Shown here piece after piece: positions 8,591-56,529 of a stretch of 64,000 nt of DNA. Below the pieces are notes generated by a model. The model worked only from the letters and a program-made list of their open reading frames with translations. It did no database searches and was not told the DNA's origin. Numbering within the stretch: the stretch's first letter is position 1; every line of letters starts with the position of its first letter. Both the position numbers and the translations under genes were made by a program. The stretch is taken from the NCBI RefSeq assembly GCF_037042905.1, contig NC_087250.1, positions 11,038,001 to 11,102,000 of the forward strand. Direction: 5' to 3'. The DNA comes from Lytechinus pictus. Lineage: Eukaryota.

Positions 8591-10759
8591 ACTGGTGTAG
8601 CCAAGAATTTTCAATAGGGGGGGGGGGGGGGCAAGGCGAGGCTGTGGATGGGGGCATCTCCCGGCCACAGTAGGGAGATTTATTTTAATATGTGCATGAT
8701 TATTTTCTGTTCTGCACATCAAAATTCTATATTTTAGGAGAACTTATATGAGCAGTGGCATACTTATATTTTGTGTTCATTTCACATGGTAGGGATCGGT
8801 AAGTTATGTCAAGTGGACTCAATTAAAAAAAACAAAATTTAATTCACTTTAAAAACCAAGTTTCCACTTTAAAGTCGCAAGCATCTAGCATTCTAGGGTT
8901 GTCTGCAATGCTCGAAAGTTTTTTTTCGTTACTGTCATTTGAATTAGTCCATTCTATCACTGAATTATTATATTTCATGGACAATTAACTTCCATTCAAA
9001 TCCTTTCTCTTCTCTTTTTCTTTCTTTTTTCTTTTATATACCCGGTTCATTCTCAATACGCGGGACTAAAGGGCGTGTCGCTCACTTGACGATATTCCCT
9101 TCATATCAACACAAGATGGCGTTTTTATTTGACAGGGTAATAAATTAATATGAACCCTTTGTCGCTTTCTGTTAAGATGCAAATATATCGCAGAAATGGG
9201 CCGGATTTGTTCATACATCAACAGAATACATACTAAGGGTAAAAAAGGAATACATATATATAAGATTTGCTTCAGTTAAATGACAACTAGAATGATTTGA
9301 AACTTGGTGCTTACTTAACAAGAATAAACATTTACATGTACATATATGTGAATGCTGAAAATACAAAAAAAAAATGATTGTCAGAACTCCGATGTAAACT
9401 ATTTGCTAAAGCTGGTTGAAATATCTTCCTGTCATGGTGTTCCGATGTTATATGGTATTTGATAAGATGCTAGCTGCACGATATTAAAAAAAATGCGTTT
9501 AAAACGATGTCGCTCACTTGAAATTTCATGAAATATATGATTTTTAGGAGTACCAACGGAAAATAATTTTTATAAAATCAATGATAAAAGCTACAGCGCT
9601 GAAAACTTGGGAATAGCGAAAATATACATTTCTACAACCTTTCCATTTTGAATTAGGCATGAAAAATAATTATTCTGCCTGATATAGCAATTTTTTTAAT
9701 GAAGCAGAATTTGCTTTTTCGCCCAAACTATACTCAGATTTTGGCAGAATGAACATAAGTAGGACAAAGGATCTTTTGTTGGTAATCAGCCAGCGAGGAC
9801 AAACGAATAAAAGTGAGTTTAATTTTGTCAGAAAGAATAAAAAAACTTAATTTTGGGTTTGAAACTCGCTCTTATTCGTTCAAAAATAAAAAAAATTGGT
9901 CGAAAGTGTGCGTCATTTTGCGTGTTAAAATCGCATAGAAGGTGCTCAATATGCAAGTGAAAGAGGAAGAAAGAATCAAGACTCCTTTCTCAAACCAGTC
10001 TTGTCGCTCAATCATTTACGAAAGAGCATTAGTTCACGCCCGAAGTGTGTACAAAGCAGTGCAAAGTGTGTACAAAACACGTGCGCGGGTTAGAATGGAC
10101 TTTGGACCTTGCCCCGACACATGTTCTCCCATTGACAATGCACGGGTCCCCGGTCTTCGATCTTCGTTTTCCAAACCCGTTGTTGGGTGTCTGGAAAACG
10201 AAGACCGAAGACCGGGGATCGCATTCGTTTAGCTAAGATACCACTTATAAATGTCATTATGAAGGCCTCTATTATTCAGCTCAAATTCAAGAATATTCTG
10301 ATCTAGAATACATTAATGTCATTAATTGGCTGATAATATCATGTTAATTGCTTGTGTCAATAAATAGTATAGTTAGACCAGTTGAAGCGGGATAGGTCTC
10401 CCAGTTTACACCACTATTCCACTGAGACAATTAACAAACTCCAGTAATCAATCAGACCAGTTTCAAATTTCCAGTTAAAGGTTAACTCTAGACCAGTAAT
10501 TTCAGACCAGTTTAATTCTTAACTGGTCCAGTAAAGTGAACTCGACCAGTTAGACCAGTATGCCGTTTTTCCATTTTCCAGAATTACATTCTGTGAACTG
10601 GTTTTTCCTTCTTAATTGGCTGACATTAATTTGCAATTTTACTACCATTGACATAACGCATGTCCCCGGTCTTCGTTTTCCAAACCTGTTGTTGAGTGTC
10701 TGGAAAACGAAGACCGAAGACCGGGGATCGCGTCAATTCGTCTAGCTAAGATAGGCCTA

Positions 10760-13700
10760 TAATATTCAGCACCAGTTTAAGAATATTCTGATCTTGGATA
10801 CGTCATCAGCTATGATTGGCTGCGGACAAGTTATGGTTATTTGTGTGAATATCGTAATCAGCTAGGGCATGATTAATAAGGATAGATGACAATTATAATG
10901 TACATATTTCACCCACGGAATTCAGCCATTGCAATTCCGAAAACTGTCATAAAACTGAAAACTTGCATACAATACACCTCATACTGCGCAATCACGTACA
11001 GGCAGACTCAACTCAACTGGCGTTTGCAACTATTTTACTACCAGTGACATTACGCATGTCCCCGGTCTTCGGTCTTCGTTTTCCAAACCTGTTGTTGGGT
11101 GTCTGGAAAACGAAGACAGAAGACCGGGGATTGCGTATTCGTCTAGCTAAGATAGGCCTATAATATTCAGCTCCAGTTTAAGAATATTCTGATCTTGGAT
11201 ACGTCATCAGCTATGATTGGCTGCGGATAAGTTATGGTTATTTGTGTGAACATCGTTATCAGCTAGGGCATGATATTAAGGATAACGTACATATTTCACC
11301 CACGGAATTCAGCCATTGCAATTCTGAAAACTGTCATAAAACTGAAAACTTGCATACAATACACCTCATACTGCGCAATCACGTACAAGCAGACTCAACT
11401 CAACTGGCGTTTGCAACTATTTTACTACCATTGACATTACGCATGTCCCCGGTCTTCGGTCTTCGTTTTCCAAACCTGTTGTTGGGTGTCTGGAAAACAA
11501 AGACAGAAGACCGGGGATTGCGTATTCGTCTAGCTAAGATAGGCCTATAATATTCAGCTCCAGTTTAAGAATATTCTGATCTTGGATACGTCATCAGCTA
11601 TGATTGGCTGCGGATAAGTTATGGTTATTTGTGTGAATATCGTAATCAGCTAGGGCATGATTAATAAGGATAGATAACAATTATAATGTACATATTTCAC
11701 CCACGGAATTCAGCCATTGCAATTCTGAAAAATGTCATAAAACTGAAAACTTGCATACAATACACCCCATACTGCGCAATCACGTACAAGCAGACTCAAC
11801 TCAACCGGCGTTTGCAACTTTTTTACTACCATTGACATTACGCATGTCCCCGGTCTTCGGTCTTCGTTTTCCAAACCTGTTGTTGGGTGTCTGGAAAACG
11901 AAGACAGAAGACCGGGGATTGCGTATTCGTCTAGCTAAGATAGGCCTATAATATTTAGCCCCAGTTTAAGAATATTCTGATCTTGGATACGTCATCAGCT
12001 ATGATTGGCTGCGGATAAGTTATGGTTATTTGTGTGAATATCGTTATCAGCTAGGGCATGATATTAAGGATAACGTACATATTTCACCCACGGAATTCAG
12101 CCATTGCAATTCCGAAAACTGTCATAAAACTGAAAACTTGCATACAATACACCTCATACTGCGCAATCACGTACAAGCAGACTCAACTCAACTAGCGTTT
12201 GCAACTATTTTACTACCATTGACATTACGCATGTCCCCGGTCTTCGGTCTTCGTTTTCCAAACCTGTTGTTGGGTGTCTGGAAAACGAAGACAGAAGACC
12301 GGGGATTGCGTATTCGTCTAGCTAAGATAGGCCTATAATATTCAGCTCCAGTTTAAGAATATTCTGATCTTGGATACGTCATCAGCTATGATTGGCTGCG
12401 GATAAGTTATGGTTATTTGTGTGAATATCGTAATCAGCTAGGGCATGATTAATAAGGATAGATAACAATTATAATGTACATATTTCACCCACGGAATTCA
12501 GCCATTGCAATTCTGAAAACTGTCATAAAACTGAAAACTTGCATACAATACACCCCATACTGCGCAATCACGTACAAGCAGACTCAACTCAACCGGCGTT
12601 TGCAACTTTTTTACTACCATTGACATTACGCATGTCCCCGGTCTTCGGTCTTCGTTTTCCAAACCTGTTGTTGGGTGTCTGGAAAACGAAGACAGAAGAC
12701 CGGGGATTGCGTATTCGTCTAGCTAAGATAGGCCTATAATATTTAGCCCCAGTTTAAGAATAATCTGATCTTGGATACGTCATCAGCTATGATTGGCTGC
12801 GGACAAGTTATGGTTATTTGTGTGAATATCGTTATCAGCTAGGGCATGATATTAAGGATAACGTACATATTTCACCCACGGAATTCAGCCATTGCAATTC
12901 CGAAAACTGTCATAAAACTGAAAACTTGCATACAATACACCTCATACTGCGCAATCACGTACAAGCAGACTCAACTCAACTGGCGTTTGCAACTATTTTA
13001 CTACCATTGACATTACACATGTCCCCGGTCTTCGGTCTTCGTTTTCCAAACCTGTTGTTGAGTGTCTGGAAAACGAAGACAGAAGACCGGGGATTGCGTA
13101 TTCGTCTAGCTAAGATAGGCCTATAATATTCAGCTCCAGTTTAAGAATATTCTGATCTTGGATACGTCATCAGCTATGATTGGCTGCGGATAAGTTATGG
13201 TTATTTGTGTGAATATCGTAATCAGCTAGGGCATGATTAATAAGGATAGATAACAATTATAATGTACATATTTCACCCACGGAATTCAGCCATTGCAATT
13301 CTGAAAACTGTCATAAAACTGAAAACTTGCATACAATACACCCCATACTGCGCAATCACGTACAAGCAGACTCAACTCAACTGGCGTTTGCAACTTTTTT
13401 ACTACCATTGACATTACGCATGTCCCCGGTCTTCGGTCTTCGTTTTCCAAACCTGTTGTTGGGTGTCTGGAAAACGAAGACAGAAGACCGGGGATTGCGT
13501 ATTCGTCTAGCTAAGAGAAGGCCTATAATATTCAGCTCCAGTTTAAGAATATTCTGATCTTGGATACGTCATCAGCTATGATTGGCTGCGGATAAGTTAT
13601 GGTTATTTGTGTGAATATCGTAATCAGCTAGGGCATGATATTAAGGATAACGTACATATTTCACCCACGGAATTCAGCCATTGCAATTCTGAAAACTGTC

Positions 13701-16700
13701 ATAAAACTGAAAACTTGCATACAATACACCCCATACTGCGCAATCACGTACAAGCAGACTCAACTCAACTGGCGTTTGCAACTATTTTACTACCATTGAC
13801 ATTACGCATGTCCCCGGTCTTCGGTCTTCGTTTTCCAAACCTGTTGTTGGGTGTCTGGAAAACGAAGACAGAAGACCGGGGATTGCGTATTCGTCTAGCT
13901 AAGATAGGCCTATAATATTTAGCTCCAGTTTAAGAATATTCTGATCTTGGATACGTCATCAGCTATGATTGGCTGCGGATAACTTATGGTTATTTGTGTG
14001 AATATCGTTATCAGCTAGGGCATGATATTAAGGATAACGTACATATTTCACCCACGGAATTCAGCCATTGCAATTCCGAAAACTGTCATAAAACTGAAAA
14101 CTTGCATACAATACACCTCATACTGCGCAATCACGTACAAGCAGACTCAACTCAACTGGCGTTTGCAACTATTTTACTACCATTGACATTACGCATGTCC
14201 CCGGTCTTCGGTCTTCGTTTTCCAAACCTGTTGTTGAGTGTCTGGAAAACGAAGACAGAAGACCGGGGATTGCGTATTCGTCTAGCTAAGATAGGCCTAT
14301 AATATTCAGCTCCAGTTTAAGAATATTCTGATCTTGGATACGTCATCAGCTATGATTGGCTGCGGATAAGTTATGGTTATTTGTGTGAATATCGTAATCA
14401 GCTAGGGCATGATTAATAAGGATAGATAACAATTATAATGTACATATTTCACCCACGGAATTCAGCCATTGCAATTCTGAAAACTGTCATAAAACTGAAA
14501 ACTTGCATACAATACACCCCATACTGCGCAATCACGTACAAGCAGACTCAACTCAACTGGCGTTTGCAACTTTTTTACTACCATTGACATTACGCATGTC
14601 CCCGGTCTTCGGTCTTCGTTTTCCAAACCTGTTGTTGGGTGTCTGGAAAACGAAGACAGAAGACCGGGGATTGCGTATTCGTCTAGCTAAGAGAAGGCCT
14701 ATAATATTCAGCTCCAGTTTAAGAATATTCTGATCTTGGATACGTCATCAGCTATGATTGGCTGCGGATAAGTTATGGTTATTTGTGTGAATATCGTAAT
14801 CAGCTAGGGCATGATATTAAGGATAACGTACATATTTCACCCACGGAATTCAGCCATTGCAATTCTGAAAACTGTCATAAAACTGAAAACTTGCATACAA
14901 TACACCCCATACTGCGCAATCACGTACAAGCAGACTCAACTCAACTGGCGTTTGCAACTATTTTACTACCATTGACATTACGCATGTCCCCGGTCTTCGG
15001 TCTTCGTTTTCCAAACCTGTTGTTGGGTGTCTGGAAAACGAAGACAGAAGACCGGGGATTGCGTATTCGTCTAGCTAAGATAGGCCTATAATATTTAGCT
15101 CCAGTTTAAGAATATTCTGATCTTGGATACGTCATCAGCTATGATTGGCTGCGGATAACTTATGGTTATTTGTGTGAATATCGTTATCAGCTAGGGCATG
15201 ATATTAAGGATAACGTACATATTTCACCCACGGAATTCAGCCATTGCAATTCCGAAAACTGTCATAAAACTGAAAACTTGCATACAATACACCTCATACT
15301 GCGCAATCACGTACAAGCAGACTCAACTCAACTGGCGTTTGCAACTATTTTACTACCATTGACATTACACATGTCCCCGGTCTTCGGTCTTCGTTTTCCA
15401 AACCTGTTGTTGGGTGTCTGGAAAACGAAGAGAGAAGACCGGGGATTGCGTATTCGTCTAGCTAAGATAGGCCTATAATATTCAGCTCCAGTTTAAGAAT
15501 ATTCTGATCTTGGATAAGTCATTAGCTATGATTGGCTGCGGATAAGTTATGGTTATTTGTGTGAATATCGTAATCAGCTAGGGCATGATTAATAAGGATA
15601 GATAACAATTATAATGTACATATTTCACCCACGGAATTCAGCCATTGCAATTCTGAAAACTGTCATAAAACTGAAAACTTGCATACAATACACCCCATAC
15701 TGCGCAATCACGTACAAGCAGACTCAACTCAACCGGCGTTTGCAACTTTTTTACTACCATTGACATTACGCATGTCCCCGGTCTTCGGTCTTCGTTTTCC
15801 AAACCTGTTGTTGGGTGTCTGGAAAACGAAGACAGAAGACCGGGAATTGCGTATTCGTCTAGCTAAGATAGGCCTATAATATTCAGCTCCAGTTTAAGAA
15901 TATTCTGATCTTGGATACGTCATCAGCTATGATTGGCTGCGGATAAGTTATGGTTATTTGTGTGAATATCGTAATCAGCTAGGGCATGATTAATAAGGAT
16001 AGATAACAATTATAATGTACATATTTCACCCACGGAATTCAGCCATTGCAATTCTGAAAACTGTCATGAAACTGAAAACTTGCATACAATACACCCCATA
16101 CTGCGCAATCACGTACAAGCAGACTCAACTCAACCGGCGTTTGCAACTTTTTTACTACCATTGACATTACGCATGTCCCCGGTCTTCGGTCTTCGTTTTC
16201 CAAACCTGTTGTTGGGTGTCTGGAAAACAAAGACAGAAGACCGGGGATTGCGTATTCGTCTAGCTAAGATAGGCCTATAATATTTAGCCCCAGTTTAAGA
16301 ATATTCTGATCTTGGATACGTCATCAGCTATGATTGGCTGCGGATAAGTTATGGTTATTTGTGTGAATATCGTTATCAGCTAGGGCATGATATTAAGGAT
16401 AAAGTACATATTTCACCCACGGAATTCAGCCATTGCAATTCTGAAAACTGTCATAAAACTGAAAACTTGCATACAATACACCTCATACTGCGCAATCACG
16501 TACAAGCAGACTCAACTCAACTGGCGTTTGCAACTATTTTACTACCATTGACATTACGCTTGTCCCCGGTCTTCGGTCTTCGTTTTCCAAACCCGTTGTT
16601 GGGTGTCTGGAAAACGAAGACAGAAGACCGGGGATTGCGTATTCGTCTAGCTAAGAGAAGGCCTATAATATTCAGCTCCAGTTTAAGAATATTCTGATCT

Positions 16701-19700
16701 TGGATACGTCATCAGCTATGATTGGCTGCGGATAAGTTATGGTTATTTGTGTGAATATCGTTATCAGCTAGGGCATGATATTAAGGATAACGTACATATT
16801 TCACCCACGGAATTCAGCCATTGCAATTCCGAAAACTGTCATAAAACTGAAAACTTGCATACAATACACCTCATACTGCGCAATCACGTATAAGCAGACT
16901 CAACTCAACTGGCGTTTGCAACTATTTTACTACCATTGACATTACGCATGTCCCCGTTCTTCGGTCTTCGTTTTCCAAACCTGTTGTTGGGTGTCTGGAA
17001 AACGAATACAGAAGACCGGGGATTGCGTATTCGTCTAGCTAAGATAGGCCTATAATATTCAGCTCCAGTTTAAGAATATTCTGATCTTGGATAAGTCATT
17101 AGCTATGGTTGGCTGCGGATAAGTTATGGTTATTTGTGTGAATATCGTAATCAGCTAGGGCATGATTAATAAGGATAGATAGCAATTATAATGTACATAT
17201 TTCACCCACGGAATTCAGCCATTGCAATTCTGAAAAATGTCATAAAACTGAAAACTTGCATACAATACACCCCATACTGCGCAATCACGTACAAGCAGAC
17301 TCAACTCAACCGGCGTTTGCAACTTTTTTACTACCATTGACATTACGCATGTCCCCGGTCTTCGGTCTTCGTTTTCCAAACCTGTTGTTGGGTGTCTGGA
17401 AAACGAAGACAGAAGACCGGGGATTGCGTATTCGTCTAGCTAAGATAGGCCTATAATATTTAGCCCCAGTTTAAGAATAATCTGATCTTGGATACGTCAT
17501 CAGCTATGATTGGCTGCGGATAAGTTATGGTTATTTGTGTGAATATCGTTATCAGCTAGGGCATGATATTAAGAATAACGTACATATTTCACCCACGGAA
17601 TTCAGCCATTGCAATTCTGAAAACTGTCATAAAACTGAAAACTTGCATACAATACACCTCATACTGCGCAATCACGTACAAGCAGACTCAACTCAACTGG
17701 CGTTTGCAACTATTTTACTACCATTGACATTACGCATGTCCCCGGTCTTCGGTCTTCGTTTTCCAAACCCGTTGTTGGGTGTCTGGAAAACGAAGACAGA
17801 AGACCGGGGATTGCGTATTCGTCTAGCTAAGAGAAGGCCTATAATATTCAGCTCCAGTTTAAGAATATTCTGATCTTGGATACGTCATCAGCTATGATTG
17901 GCTGCGGATAAGTTATGGTTATTTGTGTGAATATCGTTATCAGCTAGGGCATGATATTAAGGATAACGTACATATTTCACCCACGGAATTCAGCCATTGC
18001 AATTCTGAAAACTGTCATAAAACTGAAAACTTGCATACAATACACCCCATACTGCGCAATCACGTACAAGCAGACTCAACTCAACTGGCGTTTGCAACTA
18101 TTTTACTACCATTGACATTACGCATGTCCCCGGTCTTCGGTCTTCGTTTTCAAAACCTGTTGTTGGGTGTCTGGAAAACGAAGACAGAAGACCGGGGATT
18201 GCGTATTCGTCTAGCTAAGATAGGCCTATAATATTTAGCTCCAGTTTAAGAATATTCTGATCTTGGATACGTCATCAGCTATGATTGGCTGCGGATAAGT
18301 TATGGTTATTTGTGTGAATATCGTTATCAGCTAGGGCATGATATTAAGGATAACGTACATATTTCACCCACGGAATTCAGCCATTGCAATTCCGAAAACT
18401 GTCATAAAACTGAAAACTTGCATACAATACACCTCATACTGCGCAATCACGTATAAGCAGACTCAACTCAACTGGCGTTTGCAACTATTTTACTACCATT
18501 GACATTACGCATGTCCCCGTTCTTCGGTCTTCGTTTTCCAAACCTGTTGTTGGGTGTCTGGAAAACGAAGACAGAAGACCGGGGATTGCGTATTCGTCTA
18601 GCTAAGATAGGCCTATAATATTCAGCTCCAGTTTAAGAATATTCTGATCTTGGATAAGTCATTAGCTATGGTTGGCTGCGGATAAGTTATGGTTATTTGT
18701 GTGAATATCGTAATCAGCTAGGGCATGATTAATAAGGATAGATAGCAATTATAATGTACATATTTCACCCACGGAATTCAGCCATTGCAATTCTGAAAAA
18801 TGTCATAAAACTGAAAACTTGCATACAATACACCCCATACTGCGCAATCACGTACAAGCAGACTCAACTCAACCGGCGTTTGCAACTTTTTTACTACCAT
18901 TGACATTACGCATGTCCCCGGTCTTCGGTCTTCGTTTTCCAAACCTGTTGTTGGGTGTCTGGAAAACGAAGACAGAAGACCGGGGATTGCGTATTCGTCT
19001 AGCTAAGATAGGCCTATAATATTTAGCCCCAGTTTAAGAATAATCTGATCTTGAATACGTCATCAGCTATGATTGGCTGCGGATAAGTTATGGTTATTTG
19101 TGTGAATATCGTTATCAGCTAGGGCATGATATTAAGGATAACGTACATTTTTCACCCACGGAATTCAGCCATTGCAATTCTGAAAACTGTCATAAAACTG
19201 AAAACTTGCATACAATACACCCCATACTGCGCAATCACGTACAAGCAGACTTAACTCAACTGGCGTTTGCAACTATTTTACTACCATTGACATTACGCAT
19301 GTCCCCGGTCTTCGGTCTTCGTTTTCCAAACCTGTTGTTGGGTGTCTGGAAAACGAAGACAGAAGACCGGGGATTGCGTATTCGTCTAGCTAAGATAGGC
19401 CTATAATATTTAGCTCCAGTTTAAGAATATTCTGATCTTGGATACGTCATCAGCTATGATTGGCTGCGGATAACTTATGGTTATTTGTGTGAATATCGTT
19501 ATCAGCTAGGGCATGATATTAAGGATAACGTACATATTTCACCCACGGAATTCAGCCATTGCAATTCTGAAAACTGTCATAAAACTGAAAACTTGCATAC
19601 AATACACCCCATACTGCGCAATCACGTACAAGCAGACTCAACTCAACTGGCGTTTGCAACTATTTTACTACCATTGACATTACGCATGTCCCCGGTCTTC

Positions 19701-39920: not shown

Positions 39921-40155
39921 CACATCCAAGATGACGAGATACGATATCTCGCCAAGTCGACTTATAAAAGGTCATAGATGTCGACATGGCATAATTAAGT
40001 TTCTCGCCAAGTCGATGGCAATTAAAACATGTAAAAGGGATGGTCCTGGCTGAAAATATTTATATCTTAATACATAGAGTAGAATTCACTGAGCAATGTG
40101 CCGAAATTTTTTTCAATCGGATAACAAGTAAACAGTTATTGAAGTTTAAAGTTTA

Positions 40156-41557: not shown

Positions 41558-42127
41558 TAGCAATATATTGTTAAAACAGTCGTCGTGAATATTCATTAGG
41601 TGGGCTGATTATGTCACATCTCCACTCTCCGTTTCCCTATGTTATTATATATAATCATAATTTTTACATTATTTCATATTTGTGCTAATAATATGTATCC
41701 CTTATAATGAAATAAGTTGCAGCAATAAATATTTAATGCACTAAATCAGTTGCCAATCCAATTTTTCTACTTTTTTGTTCTTGGATGAAAACATTTGAAT
41801 AAACCTAATTTCATATAATAAAATATCGGACCCGCGGACTATCGGACCCGCGGTCTATCGGACCCGCGGTCTATCGGGCTGTAACCGTAGTCCTCGGGTC
41901 CGATAGTCCGCGGTGTGTGTAAAATTATGGTCAGGATATAGTGAGATCCAATGACATCAAGAGGTCAAAAGGCCAATGATACGAGTCCATGGGGTTCTAT
42001 AACGATGACCCAAAGGACAATCGCCCCCTGACATCTACTTCAAGGAAAATATTATCCCCATATTTTTATCGTCAGGGACTGTTACCCCCCCCCCCCCCCC
42101 CCGGAAATTTACCCTCTAGACGCCATA

Positions 42128-42790: not shown

Positions 42791-42939
42791 TACTAGGGGT
42801 AATTATCCGGGGTAATTGTCTGGAGGTTTAATTTCCGGGGGGGGGTATCAGTCCCCGGCGGTAAAAATATGGGGATAATATTTTCCTTGAAGTAGTTGTC
42901 AGGGGGTGATTGCCCTAATTGGGTTATTGTTATAGAACC

Positions 42940-45900
42940 CAGGCGCGGATCCAGGATTTCGTGGGGAAGGGGGGGGGGGCAAATTTGACCTGATTTTTGG
43001 CGCCCATATGTGTACTCTTCGAAAAATAGCGCCCACTCCCTCCCGGGAAGGCTAAATTAAGTGCCTTAAATGGATTTTGAATTATCTTATAATCACATTT
43101 AAAAAAATAAAGACCACTTTTTCATGTGTTCTTAAAAAAAAAATCCATAAATATATAATGTAATATCAATGGGAGCGCGAAGCACGAGTGATTTTTTTTT
43201 TTTTTTTTTTTTTTTTTTGGGGGGGGGGGGTTCAATTTGGTTCTTCTAACCAGAGTAGGCCCTACTAGAATATTGTGTGAACGGGAGCTGTAGTTTCTGT
43301 ACTGTTGTGTTAGAATACCCTTCAATAATATTAATGATAACCTCTTGGGAATAATGCAATCTCGAAGCAATCGACTAATTCTCCTCATCAGTGGCGTATT
43401 TATTCAGCATGGGTGCACGGGGGGGGGGGGGTGGCGAGGGCACCAAGTTAAAAAAAATAAATGAAATGGGGGGGGGTAGACGTCAAAGAAAATCTGAGAT
43501 TTCATTCTTAAAAACAAATTGAGGTATCTCACAAGGCCTAAATAAATAATGAGAACGCGAAGCGCGATCTTTTTTTAAATAGATTTTTCATGTATTATAT
43601 CCTGAAAGCCTAAGTCAGGGGCGGACCCAGCTTCCGCCAATAGGGTGAGGGGCCATTTTTTCACCCATATTTTTCCCGATCGGCCGCTCAAAGTTGATTT
43701 TTTTTTGTTTCTTTGAAGGGGTTGTCCCAGTGCCGTAATGAGCCAACAATTTCGAGGGGGCTCGATATGGTGTATCGCATAAAATTAATAAGAAGTTGCC
43801 AGTGAGCGAAGCGAGCAAGCAAATATCCTGACATTTTTATTACAAAAATACAAGGTTGTGATAGATTTTGACATAATATTTGGAAAATAATATTATATTT
43901 CATCCTAATCCCTTTCCTTTTCTCTCTATTTTTTCTTAGTCTTGATTCTCTCTATTTTTTTAACAGTCATTTCCTAGCTTTATTTTATAAGCAACATAAA
44001 TCTCTTAAGCCCTATGTAATCTAAAAATGAAATTTCATGTATTTTGTCCTGAAAATTGAACATTTTGGGCAATGTTTGTGAACCTGAACAGGACGCGTAT
44101 GTAACTAGATAATTACCACGAGCGCGAAGCGCGAGCAGAAATGTTAAATATTCGTTCTAGCCTGGTCGAAAAGGGACCAGTTAAGGATGTTTTGCAGTTA
44201 GCCATTAAGACGATACACATTTCAACGATTAAATAATGCGAGCGCGAAGCGAGAGCTGAACATTTTTGATATTCCAACCTAAAAATATGATATTTCAAAT
44301 CCCCCAATGGGACATTCGATTCATGTTTGTCAATCATGAAAAAGGATGGGTAATTTTTGTTATCTCCCTACAATAATAATGGGAGCGCAAAGCGCGAGCT
44401 GAACATTTTTGATATTCCAACCTAAAAAGATGAGATTTCAAACCCCCCAATGGGACATTCGATTCATGTTTGTCAATCATGAAAAAGGATGGGTAATTTT
44501 TGTTATCTCCCTACAATAATAATGCGAGCGCAAAGCGCGAGCAGAACATTTTGGATATTCTGATTTGAAACTGGATAATTTTAGCACGTTTTGAATAAGA
44601 TCAAGCTTTGTATCTCAAAAAACATGCGTGCACGTGTTTTAGAGTTAGACAGAATCCTGGCAATCTGAATACATTTCATTCTTCATCATAAAAATCAATA
44701 ATGCGAGCGCAGAGCCCGAGCTGAAAATAATATTTGAAATTCCGATATGAAAAGGGTCAATTTAAGCACTGTTTACAGCACTGTGTATATAGGGAAATTT
44801 GATAGCACTATATAAATAATGCGAGCGCGAAGCGGGAGCTGATATTTTATTATTTATTTGACCTAGGATCGAGACATTTTAGGCCTAAGGACATTTTGTC
44901 ATCATATAAGAATGATGACTATCTTCTATTTTTTTTCCTAAAACTTGTTGATATTTATTTCTGAAAAAGGGACAATTTAGTTATTATGAATTCATACAAA
45001 TCTTATTTCATATTTATTAATCTGTTAAGCCTAATGAGTGTGTGAAATTTGTTGACAGTGCATGAGGCCTGAAAACTGGATATTTTAAGTATTTTTGTAA
45101 TCATAAATAGGATTCATTGGTTGATATATTTTTAGCAAATAATGCGAGCGCAAATTGCGATCCGGAATTTTTTAATGGGGGGATTTAAGTAGTTTGTTAT
45201 AGAATTAATATATAGGTATACATAACTCACCAATCAAAATGCGAGCGCGTAGCGCTAGCTCATAGGCCTTTATTATTTTTTTTTACAATCGAGGCACCTG
45301 AAAAGGTATATTTAGAGAATCTTATATGAAATATAAAAAGACAATAGGTAGGCCTACTTGGCAAATAGTGCGAGCGCACAAAATGTTGCAAATGTTGATT
45401 CAAACCATAAAACGGACATTTTCCAGAGCACTTAAAAACATAAATTGGTAAATAAAACAAAATAATGAAAGGTCAATGTCCGAGCTGATTTTTTTTTGTA
45501 TATTGATATCAAAACTTGATATTTTAAACTACATATCAGCCTATTGAGCAAGATATGTATCTCATTGAACAGGCAATGCGAGCGCGATGCGCGAGCGAAA
45601 CTTTAATATAGTGACATTAAATATTTTTAAAAATTGTTTTCCAAGTCTTCTCCTGACCTTATTTTATTCACTCGTCTTCCTCCTTTTATGTTTTGTCTTT
45701 TTTTTCTCCTTTCTTTCCCCCTTTTTTTCTTTCCCCATTTTTCACAATTTATTTGCTCTGTCAATAGGGGGGGAGGTTGCCCTCGTGCCGCCTCAATCCG
45801 CCTATGTTAGTAGTTGTTATGATGAACACGATGCATATCTATTAAGAAATGAATGCGACCGCGAAGCGCTAGCTGAAAACTTTTATAATGATGAAATGAA

Positions 45901-47587
45901 AAATACATTTTCAGTTGTCAGGTTGGAATATCAAATATTTTTAGCTTGTGCTTCTCGTTCGCATAAAAAACTGTAAGGTCGGGATGCGTATATAACTAAA
46001 CAATGTATTGATGCCAGCGCGAAGCGCGAGCTAAATTTTTTATATGCTGACTTAAGAAGGACTAAGGTATAATTCCTATTCTAATTGCTTGTCCTTTTTC
46101 TCTTCCTTTTTTCTGTTTCTTACCCCTTTTTTGCGCCACCATGGGGGGGGGGGGCAAAATATTTGCCCCCTGGATCGGCTTATGTATGTTGACTTGAAAA
46201 ACACTAACACTTACATGTGGGATTGAAGCAGAGGATGAATACCTCGTTAATCAAATATTGCGAGCGCGTAGCGCGAGCTGAATTTGATAATAACCCTTTT
46301 TTGTGACCCTGAACAGTGTATCTTTCTCGCTAAACAGACTTAAAACTCGAAAACATTGTTTTTCCTGTTATCGTAAAAACGGGATATTTTAATTCAGCCG
46401 CATTAATTTAAGTTTTTTGGGCAGGACATATGTTTCACTATTAAAGTTCAAGGTCAATTTGGCGCCCTCGGTTGAACATAAACTTGGCGCCCCCATGTGA
46501 AATATAACTTTGTCCTCCCTCCCCCTCTCTGAAACATGTATTTGACGCATTATGGTCAAAATTCAAATTAGCGCTCCCCAAGTTCGAACATCAATTTGGT
46601 GCCCCGCTAGATCGAACATCAATTCAGCGCCCCATAGTTCGAACGTCATTTTGGCGCCATCAAATCGACGTCCAGGTCAACATCTCCCTCTTCCGTTTCC
46701 CATCTCCTTTTCTTTCTTTTTTCTTTCTCTTATCCTCATTCCCCTTCCTTCCTTTTTCTTTCTTTCTCTATTTCTTTCCCCCTCTTCTTTTCCCCCTTTT
46801 CTTCTCTTTCCCCCGATCTTTTCTTTCCCCCTTATCTTCTCTTTTTCTGTCTTTTCTTTCCCTCTTTTCCTCTCTCTCTTTTCTCGCTTTTCCTCTCTTC
46901 CCCCTTACTCTCTCTTTTTTCTTCTCTTTTCCTCTCTTCTTCTCTCTCTCTCTTTTCTTATCTTTCTTCCCATCTTCCTCTCTCCTTAAATATTATTCTC
47001 TTCCTCTTTTTTTCTTCTTCTTTTCCCCCTTTTCCTTATTATGTTCTTTTCTTTCTTTTCCCTCTTCCACTTTTTTCTCTTTCCCCCTTTACCTCTCCCT
47101 TTTTCTTTTTCTTTTTCTTTCCTTTCCCTCTTTTTTCTCTTTTAATTTTTTTTTCTTCTCTCCCTCCCCTTCCTCCCTCTCTCTCTCTATCTTCTCTACT
47201 TTTCCCCTCTTCCTCTCTCTCTCTTTTTTCTTATCTTTCTTCCCATCTTCCTCTCTATTTAAATATTCTTCTATTCCTTCCTCTTTTTTTTCTTCTTTTT
47301 CCTCCTTTTCCTTTCTCCTTTCTTTTCTTCTTTTCCTTTTCCCTCCTCTTTTTTTACTCTTCTTTCCCCTTTTCATCTCCATTTTTTTCTTTGTCTTTCC
47401 TTTCCCCTTTTTCTTATCTTTTTTCTTCTCTTCCTTTCTCCTTCTTACTCTCTTTTCTATTCTCTTCTTTTCCCATCTTCCTTTTTTTTTATTCTCTCCC
47501 TTTTCCCCTCTTCCCCCCTCTTTTTTGAGCTGGGGGTGGGGGGGGGGTGAGGTAGTTCCCCCTCGGTCCCCCATGGATCCGCACCTG
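42940..47587. mobile_element. hAT-like non-autonomous element with 8-bp TSD ATAGAACC, containing further unresolved nested ends (43388, 43616, 43728, 45806)
   Basis: Structure is ATAGAACC|CAGGCGCGGATCCA ... TGGATCCGCACCTG|ATAGAACC. Confidence 0.88.
46680..47525 (+). repeat. Polypyrimidine (C/T) low-complexity tract, ~850 bp
   Basis: The tract is almost exclusively C/T and produces the F/S/L-rich and K/E/R-rich spurious ORFs. Confidence 0.92.
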
Positions 47588-48443
47588 ATAGAACCCATGG
47601 CTTCGTATCATTTGACCTTTGGACCTCTCGATGACATTTGATATATCTGATCATAATTTTACACACACTGCGGACTATCGGACCCGCGGTCTATCGGACC
47701 CGCGGACTATCGGACCCGCGGTCTATCGGACCCGCGCTCTATCGGGATGTCCCCATTCATTAAGCTATACATGCTTTCAGCCCAGACCATCCCTTTAAAG
47801 GCTCCGTATAAAATAAACCTAATTGTAATAGAAAGCAATGTCATCGACCTAAGACAGGTGGCAAGCGTGCCTTTGTAGAATGCTGTTGCCGGTATGCGAT
47901 GTTTTCTATACGGTCGGCGCACATGAAACACAATTGCGTCGCTTGTATACTACTTTGCGGTTAAACCCGAGACGTTCCCACGCGTACATTTCGAGGGCAA
48001 CAATTCAGTACGCGTTTGGAAGAAAATTACCCTGTTTACACGTGCATCGGCTTTTGGTTCAGAATTGGCTTTTGGTCTATCTTGCACCGCAGAATCGGCT
48101 TACCCTCTTTGGGAATCGACGGGCGGACGACATTTGGATCTCTTAGTCTCGCCTTCACCTCTTGCGGGCGAGACAAACAATGAGAAAGAGAAGGAAGAAA
48201 GGAGAAAGGAAAAGGGCCAATAATTGGAATGATCAAACAAATCTAATCATCTTGAAATAGGGCCTACTAATAAACAAGTGAGAAAGGGGTTAGAAATAAA
48301 GAGATGGCAAAGTGGAACGGAAATTTTAGGCGGGAAAGGGAAGGAAGAGAGGCCAAAATAAACGGGATGCGAAAATGCTAACATGAAATCGGAATAGAAA
48401 ACAGAAAAAACAAGAGGGGAAAAGAAAGAAATTGAGAACACAA

Positions 48444-49767
48444 CAGCTAGTGGCGTAGCTACGGGGGGGGGGGGGGGGGGGGGGCTGGGAGCCCCCCCCC
48501 CCCCCCTGAGATTTGGTGTGCCCCCATCAGGTGCCCCGCCTGGAAAAAAATTGGTAGAGCAAAAAAAAAAAAGGGAGAAAGAAGAAAAGAAAAAGAAGAA
48601 GAAAGACAGAAGAAAAAAGAAGAGGAAAATAAGAGGAGGGAGACAAATGAATGAAATAATGTGAGGGAAAGACTTGCCAAAAAGAAACAATTCTTTCATG
48701 TTACTATAAAAAATCTTTGCTTGCGCTTCGCGCCAGAATTGGCTGTTCGATGAGATTCATATTTTGCTCAATAGGCTGATATGGAGCAAGTTTTGAAGTC
48801 ATTATACAAAACATAATTAGCTCGGACATCGAGCTTTCAATATTTTTTTCATTTACAAATTTAAGTGCTCTGTAAAATGTCAGTTTTATTGTCTACATAT
48901 CAGCATTTTTTTTTTTAAGCTCACGCTGCGTGGTCACATTGTTTGATTTGCCAAGTTCCTATTGTCTACATGTATTCCATAATGTTCCATTAAAGAAATA
49001 TATTCAGAATGCCCAGATTCTAGGTCTAAATCTAAAACATGCGCGATAGCATGCATGTTCTTTATTTAAAATCTACTTGAATTATCCAGTTTCACATCAG
49101 AATATAAATAATTGTCTGCTCGCGCTTTACGATAGCATAATTAATGATACCCAATTAACTATATCCTATTTATGATTTACAAAATATGAATAGTGTCCCG
49201 CTTTTAGGTCTAAAATCTCAATTTTTTCCTCTTGCGCTTCGCGCTCGCATCCATTGTTTCGTTACATACCTATCCCATTTATTGATACAAAAAGCGCTTA
49301 GAATTACCATTCTTTTAGGTCGGAATGTAAAAAAAAATGCATTATTGAAATATATACCATCTTCGTAGGTACCTATATAAGTGCACTTAACAGGTCCCTT
49401 TTCGATAATGCTAGAAAAGTTAATAAAAATTTCTGCTCGCGCTTGGCGTTCGCAGTAACCATCTAGTTACATACGAATCTTGATCGGGATCACACATAAC
49501 ATTGCCCAGAATATTACATGAAAGTAACAAATAAAAAAAAATCGCTCGCGCTTCGCGCTCGCACTTTTTATAATGCTTATGAGATTATTTTATGTTTATG
49601 CTGTTTTATAAGAATATAACGAAGAAGTGACTGATCGGGAAAAATATAGGTAAAGATAATTTCGGGCCCTTGTGACAAGTACACACCGGATAAAAATGGT
49701 GCCCCCCCCTGACTCAAAGCAAGGACCCCCAGTGCCCCCCAGGAAAAAAATCCTAGCTACGCCACTG
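48444..49767. mobile_element. hAT-like non-autonomous element with 8-bp TSD GAACACAA
   Basis: Structure is GAACACAA|CAG(CTAG)TGGCGTAGCTA ... TAGCTACGCCACTG|GAACACAA. The left TIR appears to carry a 4-bp insertion. Confidence 0.75.
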
Positions 49768-51744
49768 GAACACAACCGGGATACCGAGGTTGAAAATAAA
49801 GAAAGGTAAGAAAGACTCGGCTGGTGTGTGGGTATGACGTGTATATAATAGCCTATTTTGATTTCACGCAACTAGCCGCAATCATAAGGGGACACAAATT
49901 AGTGAACTTCAAGATATCGCCCAACCACTGCCGATGTTCCTATCCAGGGGACAGACCGCTCTTCACACCATGATATGCAGCGGCGTAACAGGGATCGGTG
50001 GCCAGGGGCGGGGGGGGGGGGCGGGCAAGAGCAAAATATTTCCTGGTCACATTATATGGTATAAACAGGCGTAATGAGCCGACACTATTTTGAGAAGGCC
50101 AGATATTGTGCATCGGACAGAATTTATCTTTTAAAAAATGCGAGCGAGCAAAAATTTTGACCTTTTTAATACAGAAATCCAATTTTGTGATAGATTTTGA
50201 CATGATGTCCAGAGATTGATATTTCACTCTTCTCTCTTTGGATTCCTTTTTTGTCGTCTGTACGCGCACTGTGAACAGGATTCTTTGCGGCTGTAACGTG
50301 AAGAGTAAAAGAAAAAGAAAAAAAAACAGGGGTGGAGTATACCACATGTGCTAAAGAAAGCCGTTTTATATAAGTCCCGAGCGAAGCGAGCGAGAAAAAA
50401 ATCACCTTTTCATGAGAATTTAACTTTGAGCTATCATATCCTACACTTTTCCTCTGCTTTTTTTTGTGTTTTTGTTTGTACAACTTTTTGGGCCCATGGC
50501 CCAACACTTCGTTACGCAGTGATGTGCGGTTGGGGTCCGGGGCGGAGCCCCCTGAAAAATTCTTGATATCAAAGCCATTTAAACCTCGCAGATTGCCGCT
50601 ATTTTAATCAAATCGCATTCTACATAGACTATAGCTTTTACACAACACATTTATTCAACCCAGTTGCGTAATGAACCAAATTTTTATAGGGCAAAGCATA
50701 CCAACGTGGGAAAAAAATTGTAAAAAGTCGCTAGCGTGCAAAGCGAGCTGGAAAAAAATTGCCTATTGAAATTAAATTCTAATTATGTGATATATTTTCC
50801 ATTATATTCAGCAAATAACACATTTCATTGTCCATTCATTTCATTATACTTTGTCTCCTATAATTTTCTTTTTTTCCCTCTTGGGTGTGGAACACCCCCC
50901 CCCCCCGCCTGTATGCCATTGATTGAACATTGTTGAACGGGGGTAGGTATATAGCCATTTGAAGGTTATAAATGCTGAAGAGCCCATACTGCGTGGGGTC
51001 TGGGACAAAGGCCCGGTAGCTTATTTGCATAAAATCTAGCAAGCTTATAACACAATGTTGTATGCAGACCATCTTTCTTCCCGCTCTTTTCAATCATCGG
51101 TAGCCCGGTCGTGTTATTATTTTTTTCTTGTCCCTTTTTCCCTTGTATTTTTTTCCAATTTAGCTTTTGATTAATTACGTTCTACCTTCGTTTCCCGCTC
51201 TTCATACCATTTTGTTATCTTTTAAATTATTTCCCACCGTGATATTGCATTACATAGGCCTATTTCGGAATGATGTGTTCTTTCTCAAATGTTCTTCTTT
51301 CGTATATTTTCCCGCTTTCCTTTTTTTTCCATTAAAAAAAAAGTTTTTTTCTTCGTTTTTTTTCTCAATTTTCCCTTTCCTTTTCCTCCTTTCCTTTTCC
51401 CATTTCCTTCCCCATTTCCCTGTCTTTCTTTCCCCCTCCCTTTTTTCTTTTTCCCGTTTTTCTTAATTACGCCACTGATGATAATGACCGGGAATTTTCT
51501 GGCTCTCGTCCCCCCCCCCCTCCCCTGGCCACCGAACGCTGCTACGCCCCTGATTCTATGTAAGCATCTATTAATTGCATGCATTTTTCAGTTTGAAAAT
51601 TTGTTTTCTTTAAAAACGATATGACAATTTCATGGAATATTGTATCCACGTATATCGGTTGTTTTAAGGTCTGTTTATCAGCCAGCACGAAGAAAACGAA
51701 GTACAATTGCACGGAAACGTGTCCATAGCACGCTATATGTGGTA

Positions 51745-54110
51745 ATTAGCTTGACGAATGAAATCCCCGGTCTTCTGTCTTCGTTTTCCAGACACCCAAC
51801 AACAGGTTTGGAAAACGAAGACCGAAGACCGGGGACATGCGTAATGTCAATAGTAGTAAAATAGTTGCAAACGCCAGTTGAGTTGAGTCTGCTTGTACGT
51901 GATTGCGCAGTATAGGGTGTATTGTATGCAAGTTTTCAGTTTTATGACAGTTTTCAGAATTGCAATGGCTGAATTCCGTGGGTGAAATATGTACATTATA
52001 ATTGTTATCTATCCTTATTAATCATGCCCTAGCTGATAACGATATTCACACAAATAACCATAACTTATCCGCAGCCAATCATAGCTGATGACGTATCCAA
52101 GATCAGAATATTCTTAAACTGGAGCTGAATATTATAGGCCTATCTTAGCTAGACGAATACGCAATCCCCGGTCTTCTGTCTTCGTTTTCCAGACACCCAA
52201 CAACAGGTTTGGAAAACGAAGACCGAAGACCGGGACATGCGTAATGTCAATGGTAGTAAAATAGTTGCAAACGCCAGTTGAGTTGAGTCTGCCTGTACGT
52301 GATTGCGCAGTATGAGGTGTATTGTATGCAAGTTTTCAGTTTTATGACAGTTTTCGGAATTGCAATGGCTGAATTCCGTGGGTGAAATATGTACGTTATC
52401 CTTAATATCATGCCCTAGCTGATAACGATATTCTAACAAATAACCATAACTTATCCGCAGCCAATCATAGCTGATGACGTATCCAAGATCAGAATATTCT
52501 TAAACTGGAGCTAAATATTATAGGCCTATCTTAGCTAGACGAATACGCAATCCCCGGTCTTCTGTCTTCGTTTTCCAGACACCCAAAAAAGGTTTGGAAA
52601 ACGAAGACCGAAGACCGGGGACATGCGTAATGTCAATGGTAGTAAAATAGTTGCAAACGCCAGTTGAGTTGAGTCTGCTTGTACGTGATTGCGCAGTATG
52701 GGGTGTATTGTATGCAAGTTTTCAGTTTTATGACAGTTTTCAGAATTGCAATGGCTGAATTCCGTGGGTGAAATATGTCCATTATAATTGTTATTTATCC
52801 TTATTAATCATGCCCTAGCTGATAACGATATTCACACAAATAACCATAACTTATCCGCAGCCAATCATAGCTTATGACGTATCCAAGATCGGAATATCCT
52901 TGTACTGGTGCTGAATATTATAGGCCTATCTTAGCTAGACGAATACGCAATCCCCGGTCTTCTGTCTTCGTTTTCCAGACACCCAACAACAGGTTTGGAA
53001 AACGAAGACCGAAGACCGGGACATGCGTAATGTCAATGGTAGTAAAATAGTTGCAAACGCCAGTTGAGTTGAGTCTGCCTGTACGTGATTGCGCAGTATG
53101 AGGTGTATTGTATGCAAGTTTTCAGTTTTATGACAGTTTTCGGAATTGCAATGGCTGAATTCCGTGGGTGAAATATGTACGTTATCCTTAATATCATGCC
53201 CTAGCTGATAACGATATTCTAACAAATAACCATAACTTATCCGCAGCCAATCATAGCTGATGACGTATCCAAGATCAGAATATTCTTAAACTGGAGCTAA
53301 ATATTATAGGCCTATCTTAGCTAGACGAATACGCAATCCCCGGTCTTCTGTCTTCGTTTTCCAGACACCCAACAACAGGTTTGGAAAACGAAGACCGAAG
53401 ACCGGGGACATGCGTAATGTCAATGGTAGTAAAATAGTTGCAAACGCCAGTTGAGTTGAGTCTGCTTGTACGTGATTGCGCAGTATGGGGTGTATTGTAT
53501 GCAAGTTTTCAGTTTTATGACAGTTTTCAGAATTGCAATGGCTGAATTCCGTGGGTGAAATATGTCCATTATAATTGTTATTTATCCTTATTAATCATGC
53601 CCTAGCTGATAACGATATTCACACAAATAACCATAACTTATCCGCAGCCAATCATAGCTTATGACGTATCCAAGATCGGAATATCCTTGTACTGGTGCTG
53701 AATATTATAGGCCTATCTTAGCTAGACGAATACGCAATCCCCGGTCTTCTGTCTTCGTTTTCCAGACACCCAACAACAGGTTTGGAAAACGAAGACCGAA
53801 GACCGGGGACATGCGTAATGTCAATGGTAGTAAAATAGTTGCAAACGCCAGTTGAGTTGAGTCTGCTTGTACGTGATTGCGCAGTATGGGGTGTATTGTA
53901 TGCAAGTTTTCAGTTTTATGACAGTTTTCAGAATTGCAATGGCTGAATTCCGTGGGTGAAATATGTACGCTATCCTTAATATCATGTCCTAGCTGATAAC
54001 GATATTCACACAAATAACCATAACTTATCCGCAGCCAATCATAGCTGATGACGTATCCAAGATCAGAATATTCTTGAACTGGTGCTGAATATTATAGGCC
54101 TATCTTAGCT
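51745..54110 (-). repeat. Inverted short array (~6 monomers) of the same satellite
   Basis: Reverse-complement monomers alternate long and short, with palindromes at about 51765, 52165, 52552, 52952, 53338 and 53739. Confidence 0.97.
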
Positions 54111-56529
54111 AGACGAATTGACGCGATCCCCGGTCTTCTGTCTTCGTTCTCCAGACACCCAACAACAGGTTGGGAAAACGAAGACCGAAGACCGGGGACA
54201 TGCGTTATGTCAATGGTAGTAAAATTGCAAATTAATGTCAGCCAATTAAGAAGGAAAAACCAGTTCACAGAATGTAATTCTTGAAAATGGAAAAACGGCA
54301 TACTGGTCTAACTGGTCGAGTTCACTTTACTGGACCAGTTAAGAATTAAACTGGTCTGAAATTACTGGCCTAGAGTTAACCTTTAACTGGAAATTTGAAA
54401 CTGGTCTGATTGATTACTGGAGTTTGTTACTTGTCTCAGTGGAATAGTGGTGTAAACTGGGAGACCTATCCCGCTTCAACTGGTCTAACTATACTAATTA
54501 TTGACACAAGCAATTAACATGACTTCATTATCAGCCAATTAATGACATTAATGTATTCTAGATCAGAATATTCTTGAATTTGAGCTGAATAATAGAGGCC
54601 TTCATAATGACATTTATAAGTGGTATCTTAGCTAAACGAATGCGATCCCCGGTCTTCGGTCTTCGTTTTCCAGACACCCAACAACGGGTTTGGAAAACGA
54701 AGATCGAAGACCGGGGACCCGTGCATTGTCAATGGGAGAACATGTGTCGGGGCAAGGTCCAAAGTCCATTCTAACCCGCGCACGTGTTTTGTATACACTT
54801 TGCACTGCTTTGTACACACTGGGCGTGAACCACAAACGCTTTCACACGAGTGTGATATGAGTCCCCGGTCTTCGGTCTTCGGTCTTCGTTTTCCAGACAC
54901 CCCTAGTATTCGTTTTCACGTACCTTTCATTCCATTTATTAGGGTTTTATCAACCATGTCAACGAATTGACGATCCCAATATTGACCGCATGTTTGTTTT
55001 AACATGAGAATTCGCAAATGCCCTTGATATTCATAATTCTGTTTTATTTTAAGTTTGTCATTAATGTTTGTTAACATTCACTCTGCTAATAACTTGTCAA
55101 TTTTGATTTACAAAAAAAAATCAAGTCTGCTTACTGATGTCCTTTGTCTATTTTAATTATTTTTTGTTGTTGATATGCCTTTCTTTCTTTTTTCCTGATT
55201 CCACCCTGTGCACCCCGTTAAAACTCAAGGAAGAATGTTTCAAATGTTTTCTAGTTCTTACACCGTTCATAATAAGGAGATGGGATTAGGTGTAAAGTTA
55301 ACGCTGAAGGGAGAGGAATGGGTACGTATGGAGAGAGAGAAAAAAACTTATCACAAAAGATAAAGAATTGATCTCCATGACATTAAATCACAATTGCGTC
55401 CTATTTTTTTAACAAGTTTGTATGATACATGTATGCCTCCCACGTAAGGCGTAAGGAAAAAAGTTTACCTAATGCATCAAATTAGATTAATTGATTAGAT
55501 TCATTGCGGTAAATGAAAAACAATAAATTCGATGTTCCAGCCAGGGTGACCAGATTTCACAAAATTTAATACGGGACAATCGACAAAGCACTATGTACCA
55601 TCGGATCGACCGAGCCAGGCCAAAAATCAACAAGAAGGCTACACAATGTTAGACTTGTTAACAAAATATATTAAGAAAGGGGAAGGGATGGTGAGCGGAA
55701 GAAACAAAAGAGAAAAAAATGAGGAAACAAGAAATGAGTTGCGAGGAAAGAAAAAAAAATAAGGAGAGAAAAGAGAAAAGTAAGAAAAATGGAGGAAAAG
55801 AGAAAGAAAGAAAGAAAAGGAATTCCTTCATTATTTGAAAGAAACAAAGACAAAAGAAAACATGAAGGAAGCAAGGAATGAAGAAAGGAAAGAAGGAATA
55901 AGGGAAAAGAATTAAAAGGGAAAACAGAAATTAAAAAATGAAAGAAAAGAAAACAAATAACATCTAAAAAAAAAAAATCTAGAATAGATTCTGATCACGC
56001 TAGTTTAAAAATATAATGGTCTATCACAACATAACCAAAGTACATGCACATGTATACATAATGCAATGTACGTACCCTAGGGTACCCGAGGATAAGTGCG
56101 GGCACGGCCAATATTATATAGCACGCAGGAAACTGCGGGCGCGGCTAAAACCCTAGGGGGCTCCCCTTGAATACCCTCGGTTAGACGCAAAAGCCCCCTA
56201 GGGTGTTTGCGTGCTCGGGCGTGACGTTTCCTGCGGCCGGCACTGTATTATTTAACGAAAATAAGGTGAAAATCTTGTAGTTTGTATTCCTTCATCTCTT
56301 TTCAACTAATGCTCATGAAATTTGGCACACACATCAGTCTTGAGTTGAAAATGTGCGAGAATATTTTTGTTTGTATCAGAAATCGTGTTGCCAAGGTAAC
56401 AACATATCATACGCCAAAATAAGATTAAGACAGTGGTCAATGCTAACTTTTGTTTGGCTACATAGAAAACGACATGTAGCTGTGGGCTTCGTTATCGTTT
56501 TTAATTTTAGGGTGGGGGGGGGGGGGGCT

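Follow-up and report, generated by a model that had tools for sequence, protein, structure and literature searches.

We analyzed a 64,000-nt stretch of the Lytechinus pictus genome (contig C6, positions 11038001-11102000; hereafter the window, in whose own numbering coordinates are given unless a contig is named), searching it together with the whole genome of 811 Mb (368 contigs, denoted here by C-numbers). The window holds two inverted arms of tandemly repeated monomers, a long one on the left and a short one on the right, that face each other across a centre, and we consider it probable that positions 10029-54902 are occupied by a single non-autonomous copy from a young family of foldback-type transposons in the Mutator superfamily, and that the left array of this copy has grown in place.

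Arms, hairpins and centre of the window copy

The left arm (29.9 kb) begins with a 607-bp lead-in, the outer non-tandem part of the terminal inverted repeat (TIR; 10029-10636, forward strand), and continues as a tandem array of 74 full monomers of 387 or 401 bp and one partial inner monomer (10637-39920, forward strand). The inverted right arm (3.2 kb) comprises 6 full monomers and one partial inner monomer (51746-54225, reverse strand) leading out to a 680-bp lead-in (54226-54902, reverse strand) with an intact family terminus, which ends ...CCAGACACCC at 54902 (terminus pattern C6:11092837-11092873, minus strand). Tandem Repeats Finder recovered this plan as a 387-bp repeat in 74.6 copies at 10636-39920 and a reverse-complement repeat of 386 bp in 6.3 copies at 51746-54225, and blastn aligned 51746-54830 on the minus strand with 13113-10032 (94.4% identity over 3,134 bp), with the left and right lead-ins sharing 98.35% over 607 bp. 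When the arrays were split at a conserved anchor, the left one yielded 75 monomer starts, of which 74 open full units and 1 a partial unit, and the right one 7, with 6 full units and 1 partial unit, in agreement with an initial annotation, made from the window alone, that had counted ~74 versus ~6 monomers of long and short types in inverted arms. The same splitting recovered both types, at 401/402 and 387/388 bp (with rare lengths of 378, 384 and 396 bp), which differ by a ~14-bp indel and adjacent substitutions.

That annotation had drawn the element at 10032..54905 with a ~730-bp unique lead-in common to both arms. The element and its shared lead-in stand, but the dimensions needed revision: the element spans 10029-54902, the lead-in measures 607 bp on the left and 680 bp on the right, and the left boundary starts at position 71 of the full 680-bp family lead-in (blastn, query 71-680), the family terminus lacking its outer 70 bp at the left end but not at the right end (54902). 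Nor is the lead-in wholly unique, because one copy of the monomer's hairpin motif lies inside it (~10156-10230).

This hairpin recurs throughout both arrays, every monomer carrying the element's terminal motif twice, as inverted copies that form a ~30-bp stem. Folded as single-stranded DNA, an example at 18127-18198 (forward strand) reached -32.5 kcal/mol (z = -9.55, 0 of 200 shuffles equally stable), and the first 21 nt of its right half match the element terminus exactly. By analogy with FB, Galileo, Tetris and Rehavkus, for which such a role has been proposed, the motif may be a transposase-binding site and the arms stacks of such sites. As a separate observation, the hairpin-bearing 200 bp of the lead-in (10045-10264) reached summed word depths of 10^4-10^5 in contig sets of another organism, in which the lead-in beside the hairpin reached tens to hundreds only; contig depth does not equal copy number, and a related hairpin-bearing repeat may be far more abundant in that organism.

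Between the arms, the centre opens with a 236-bp inner junction sequence (39920-40155, forward strand, as are the features that follow) found at the same place in the C3 (1-240) and C7 (1-250) copies of the family. The family's non-coding core is present in two parts, a short fragment at 41558-41825 (98.5% identical to positions 4293-4561 of the C2a centre) and the main part at 47755-51874 (96-98% identical to 8 other copies), separated by a nested, unrelated non-coding repeat of 5.9 kb (41825-47755). None of the 18 open reading frames (ORFs) of at least 70 aa in the centre matched a Pfam transposase, the sole match being DUF3720 below cut-off, which agrees with the initial annotation's failure to recognize one there. 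The nested repeat is bounded at both ends by arrays of one and the same 16-bp unit (41824-41877 and 47670-47745), encloses a CT-rich low-complexity stretch and has no Pfam match; a 4.6-kb probe from it gave 219 genome matches on many contigs (87-98%). It is likewise nested within the C3 copy (C3:68283740-68288132), where both site and orientation differ, and within the C29 copy (C29:1138121-1142543), making three insertions into one low-copy family. A minisatellite block of CCAGTT/AACTGG-rich 31-, 83- and 114-bp units lies at 40190-41560, and the C16 and C7 copies have such a block elsewhere, across the core or in another relative orientation.

The window copy lacks its left tip, and we evaluated whether the two arms belong to a single insertion. 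The innermost monomers of both arms carry the same private C-to-T variant within the anchor, the common variant that the initial annotation had spotted, and it is absent from all 19 arms assessed in 11 other copies. There is a single family core, and its inner junctions to both arms are canonical, as in the C3, C7, C13 and C2a copies. Because of this shared private variant and the single core with canonical junctions, we interpret the window copy as one element whose left tip was lost later. No target-site duplication (TSD) was found, the 8-10-mer of the right flank at the expected TSD position (54903-54912) being absent from window positions 1-12000, as follows from a left terminus without its outer 70 bp. 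Those 70 bp would have been lost after insertion, and having lost its left terminus the copy is probably immobile.

A missing terminus and TSD are also what one would see if two independent head-to-head insertions, or an insertion beside a rearranged fragment, lay here with one of them 5'-truncated. The left flank (9200-10031) is a low-copy repeat with three other copies in the genome (91-96% identity), and in two of them homology ends within 2 bp of the junction with the truncated lead-in, which fits a rearrangement breakpoint. Such a double origin nevertheless seems very unlikely to us: it leaves the identical private variant on both innermost monomers (0/19 other arms) and the presence of exactly one core, canonically joined to both arms, without an account, and the terminus pattern search found no further terminus in the window. 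We thus retain a single element with a truncated left end.

The surroundings are rich in transposable elements, and no host gene was recognized in the window. To the left lie two head-to-head Tc1/mariner-type transposase frames (894-1724, minus strand, and 1763-2689, plus strand; 276 and 308 aa) with DDE_3 and HTH_Tnp_Tc3_2 domains, and an imperfect (ATG)n microsatellite of ~840 bp (7681-8524, 72% matches). To the right are remnants of non-LTR (non-long-terminal-repeat) retrotransposons (59128-59580, minus strand, and 62027-63493, plus strand), in the form of a piece of a reverse transcriptase and of a zinc-knuckle frame with an AP-endonuclease-type frame behind it.

A foldback family and its transposase-bearing giants

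Extending the analysis to the whole genome, a terminus-specific 37-nt pattern returned 34 forward and 34 reverse matches (reversed control, 0), and these 68 termini resolved into 30 plus/minus pairs of 1.3-74.8 kb and 8 solo termini, the window's right end among the latter. The initial annotation had allowed that the lead-in and array might occur elsewhere only as a single-orientation unit; what the genome holds instead are these 30 pairs, with perfect TSDs in all 13 that were read (9 bp in 6, 10 bp in 7), a count that leaves aside C12, C20 and the window copy, where an internal hairpin motif had been taken for the end because the true outer end lay beyond the sequence used or is missing. Given the plus/minus pairing and the TSDs in 13/13 pairs, this is a genuine transposon of foldback type whose TIRs contain tandem repeats, and in the window copy one arm is greatly expanded.

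Alignment of the outer flanks of copies located the family terminus (GGGTGTCTGG...) 70 bp beyond the left boundary of the window copy and revealed a common plan, in which the terminus (GGGTGTC...), a ~680-bp lead-in and a variable array of 387/401-bp monomers are mirrored around a 4.8-kb non-coding core. The lead-in is present in at least 27 full-length copies at 96-99% identity, and the core, ~4.8 kb in compact copies, is 96-98% conserved among 9 copies, with no ORF above the Pfam cut-off among 25 ORFs of one core copy or the 18 of the window centre. Centre length varies from 164 bp (C19) to 14.4 kb, and the arms of 11 other copies hold 1-16 monomers, often unequally, versus 75 and 6 in the window copy. 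The family thus combines the features by which foldback elements are known, namely long TIRs built of tandem subrepeats, variable arm length, and a variable centre without a Pfam family (18 + 31 ORFs). Genome-wide the monomer pattern matched 527 times (315 + 212), ~81 of these in the window copy. One unusual copy (C16:20129325-20155639) is a 26-kb element with one terminus pair and a 9-bp TSD that contains two cores 99.9% identical and four arm arrays; its order of arm-core-arm-arm-core-arm suggests either that one element was duplicated internally or that two were fused.

Scanning the genome for the MULE transposase domain (PF10551), we found that 2 of only 17 matches fall within the two largest terminus pairs, in open frames of 894 and 723 aa. 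These pairs, at C4:3050006-3124837 and C5:27290466-27353296 by terminus pattern, share a private terminus variant and delimit giant elements of 74.9 kb (C4:3049977-3124902) and 62.9 kb (C5:27290437-27353361), each flanked by its own exact 9-bp TSD. The 894-aa frame on C4 matches the Pfam MULE model at E = 4e-7 (30.7 bits, curated cut-off 27.6), and a 4-kb segment carrying the transposase has exactly two genomic copies, 99% identical and both inside the giants. The left arm of the C4 giant opens with the family terminus (95%) and proceeds into 389-397-bp monomers ~92% identical to those of the window, and a sample taken 2.4 kb from the right end matches the left arm, inverted, at 100%. Wherever sampled, the two giants are 99-100% identical; interior samples were 100% identical between C4 and C5, one of them found nowhere else in the genome. 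Across 19 samples of 250 bp from C4, none of the 17 lying between 3058000 and 3116500 was monomer array, and the giant size of this element is therefore not a product of arm expansion.

The transposase itself has 50 homologues in public data (best, 73%), of which the few bearing names belong to a sea cucumber, a coral and a EukProt entry. Among 14 aligned homologues, D275, D344, E477, C365/H368 and a C665-C667-C676-H678 finger (CxC...CxH) are invariant, and its ESM Atlas neighbours are MULE/SWIM clusters. Mutator elements are recognized by TSDs of 8-11 bp (typically 9) and a MULE-type DDE transposase with a D-D-E triad, a CxxH motif and a SWIM-type zinc finger. Our family shows this TSD size, a MULE transposase between shared termini and the conserved residues; the window copy, without both termini and a TSD, belongs to it as a truncated member by sequence. 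On the strength of the 9-10-bp TSDs and of the MULE transposase in two giants with the same termini and monomers, we assign the family, by sequence, to the Mutator superfamily with a foldback architecture and not to P/Galileo. Its copies would then be moved in trans by a MULE/SWIM transposase of 868-894 aa encoded only by the two giants.

Foldback architecture does occur in more than one superfamily, as with Galileo in P (PMC4079207 and PMC3573991), and the C4 giant was read over ~25 of its 75 kb, where another transposase gene could hide. The family could on that account be P/Galileo-like, hAT or CACTA, and the MULE ORF of the giants unrelated nested cargo. We regard this as extremely improbable, as TSDs of 9-10 bp in 13/13 pairs suit Mutator and not a 7-8-bp system, and a MULE nested independently would be expected elsewhere too, whereas this gene has exactly two genomic copies, both in giants. 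We therefore continue with the Mutator assignment.

A few further observations concern the giants and possible autonomous copies. Their ~60-kb interior is mostly non-array, and a partial second copy of the transposase 3' region lies near C4:3107500 (93%); a 10-kb stretch of the C4 interior (3070000-3079999) contains no ORF of at least 120 aa. Just upstream of the transposase frame, C4:3096397-3096874 is a ~480-bp palindromic repeat with many genomic copies (85-87%; 10,090 first-look candidates), which looks like an abundant miniature inverted-repeat transposable element. A 5.3-kb element with variant termini was considered as an autonomous copy and set aside as a scrambled one, none of its 6 ORFs scoring above the Pfam cut-off.

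Growth of the left array

We evaluated the internal structure of the left array by exact monomer comparison, revealing amplification in place and a block structure. Its 74 full monomers comprise 45 distinct sequences, with 29 of the 74 being exact repeats of another monomer. The latest large event is a tandem pair of 17-monomer blocks (15749-29060, forward strand), in which monomers L14-L30 (15749-22404) are duplicated as L31-L47 (22405-29060), 6,656 bp each with 2 mismatches, and nested inside the block are 4-monomer duplications (L20-22 = L24-26). On average the best match of a left-arm monomer is 99.82% within the arm, versus 98.3% in the right arm and 98.55% in other copies. Monomers at the array edges are less homogenized than those of the interior (99.16% versus 99.88%), the usual condition of arrays that evolve through unequal exchange. 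A monomer phylogeny by arm, which the initial annotation had proposed, gave the same picture: on a tree built with 177 monomers of 12 elements, the label for the left arm changes only 7 times, versus a shuffle mean of 72 and minimum of 60 (n = 200).

The initial annotation had also taken the short arm to preserve a near-ancestral state, which holds for its size, as 6 monomers lie within the range of other copies' arms (1-16), but not for its content. The right arm has duplications of its own (R02 = R04 at 100%; R03 versus R05 at 99.7%) and is thus not frozen. Starting from such a family-typical handful, the left array would have grown to 75 monomers after insertion by repeated out-of-register duplication, in blocks of 1, of 4 and finally of 17 monomers. 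Unequal sister-chromatid exchange or faulty replication restart, either of them favoured by the hairpins, may have been the recombination or replication mechanism.

Arm expansion is recurrent in the family. A 43.4-kb element on C22, with intact termini and a 10-bp TSD, has one arm with ~18 kb of array (~45-49 monomers), in which all 9 samples between 1452000 and 1468000 were monomer and the core was reached at 1470000. A 34-kb element at C6:19.4 Mb owes its large size to causes other than array. A satellite is usually recognized by high copy number and by long arrays free of the parent element; here the monomers number ~527, no free array was encountered among the 100 sites listed, and both long arrays found (~29 and ~18 kb) lie within elements. 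The outcome in the window is a 29-kb highly homogenized array that is a satellite in statu nascendi, still within its transposon. We set aside a functional, centromere-type satellite because the genome has only ~527 monomers, which are spread across at least 17 contigs.

The length of the left array is that of the assembly alone, and a near-perfect 6.7-kb tandem duplication is a place where assemblers can err. Blocks of up to 6,656 bp differing at 2 positions and the 29 of 74 monomers that are exact repeats would both fit a left arm that is in truth short, like those of other copies, its near-identical array over-expanded by the assembler. Ten public runs consist of short assembled contigs; the four compared with 9000-10640 do not bridge 10031/10032, and in the best-covering contig set one contig ends at 9933 and the next begins at 10071, with no bearing on the truncated junction or the array length. 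An artefact of this kind still appears very unlikely, for the array is no featureless repeat, given its 45 distinct monomer sequences, ordered nested duplications and less homogenized edges, and a second long array stands in an intact, TSD-flanked element on another contig (C22). Assemblers, moreover, collapse tandem arrays more often than they inflate them.

Besides the dependence on the assembly, several points weigh against our reading of one Mutator-type foldback element with an array grown in place. The window copy has neither a TSD nor its left terminus, and its origin in a single insertion is argued from internal features only. The contrast in tree labels is inflated by kinship among tandem copies. 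Arms were counted or sampled in 12 of the 30 pairs, and 100 of the 527 monomer sites were listed, leaving room for another large array or for a free array elsewhere. The C22 element is intact yet expanded, and loss of a terminus is therefore not required for expansion. The C5 transposase frame is shorter than that on C4 (723 versus 894 aa), the transposase is linked to the termini by position and shared sequence rather than by assay, and the binding role of the hairpin is taken from analogy only.

Implications and known systems

That foldback transposons seed satellites is already established (Tetris, Rehavkus), and the window copy is an early stage of satellite birth of the kind known in flies and beetles. 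The value of this family lies in having all stages in one genome: an autonomous source, which was not found for Tetris, ~28 young copies that are non-autonomous and whose arms hold 1-16 monomers, and two independent expanded arms. Within the window, a single element offers both states, one arm expanded and the other not. As the duplication history can still be read (blocks of 1, 4 and 17 monomers, the last with 2 differences over 6.7 kb), population long reads could measure how fast and by what mechanism arrays grow early on, and the supposition that transposase-binding hairpins and array instability are linked can be put to the test. The most unusual by-product of the analysis is the set of 63-75-kb autonomous copies, which, flanked by TSDs, bear on the amount of DNA that a cut-and-paste transposase can move. 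Tentatively, and with more doubt than confidence, we suggest that among cut-and-paste Mutator elements these may be the largest seen to move as single units, and that stacked hairpins may both permit the mobilization of long DNA and render the arms fragile, giving rise to satellites (75 and ~47 monomers in two independent copies). If true, one sequence feature would lie behind both giant-cargo transposition and satellite birth.

Galileo has a 7-bp TSD, and the P superfamily as a whole a 7-8-bp TSD and a THAP-domain P transposase. Unlike Galileo, our family has 9-10-bp TSDs and a MULE transposase, the sole transposase found, no genome-wide THAP search having been made. Galileo (Drosophila, P superfamily) is described with long, internally repetitive TIRs, thought to offer extra binding sites, and with strikingly variable arm length (PMC3573991). 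Concerning size, the sections seen of a giant-transposon review name no Mutator element of 63-75 kb and give Pack-MULEs of at most 7 kb, and they report FB-flanked composite units of hundreds of kb in Drosophila (PMC6431247).

Closer in superfamily is Tm1, a Mutator/Foldback element of root-knot nematodes (Meloidogyne), whose composite TIRs are unequal between ends, whose TSDs are 8-10 bp and mostly 9, and which includes MITE-like, cargo-bearing and transposase-bearing members as well as truncated copies without TSDs (PMC3169594). Like Tm1 and Drosophila FB, our family has unequal composite TIRs, a similar TSD range, mixed members and truncated TSD-less copies, but where Tm1 is described with ~14-bp subrepeats and asymmetric termini, the units here measure ~390 bp and each bears a long hairpin, the termini being symmetric.

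The transposase of Rehavkus typically carries a PHD finger, and for our 894-aa frame Pfam gives only MULE at E <= 0.01, the C-terminus having Cys/His-rich stretches without Pfam assignment. Rehavkus foldbacks of Tribolium have up to 50 repeats per terminus, with element-resident repeats giving rise to arrays of up to ~80 kb under concerted evolution, and more repeats are said there to enhance transposition (PMC12581902, the latter citing Liu and Wessler 2017). Our family is like Rehavkus, as far as described, in that element-resident repeats grow into long arrays, and differs from the Tribolium elements in its host and in the nearest named homologues of its transposase, those of sea cucumber, coral and the EukProt entry.

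The closest description is that of Tetris, a foldback of Drosophila virilis (Dias et al. 2014, PMC4079207) in which an outer domain and a variable tandem TIR-220, along with an inner domain, flank a non-coding middle, TSDs are 8-10 bp, and arrays expand within elements and seed satellite DNA, longer arrays being more homogeneous. In that account no autonomous copy was found, membership in Mutator was suggested from TSD size only, and repeats carrying terminal sequence, in Tetris as in Galileo, were proposed as extra transposase-binding sites (PMC4079207). As described there, Tetris resembles our family in its TIR plan, non-coding middle, TSD size, array expansion and a repeat that shares a stretch with the terminal domain, a likeness at the level of description, with a ~220-bp repeat in Tetris and a 387/401-bp monomer here. 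Unlike the Tetris repeat as described, the repeat here is confined to elements wherever it was inspected (~527 units), and, unlike for Tetris, two transposase-bearing copies are identified.

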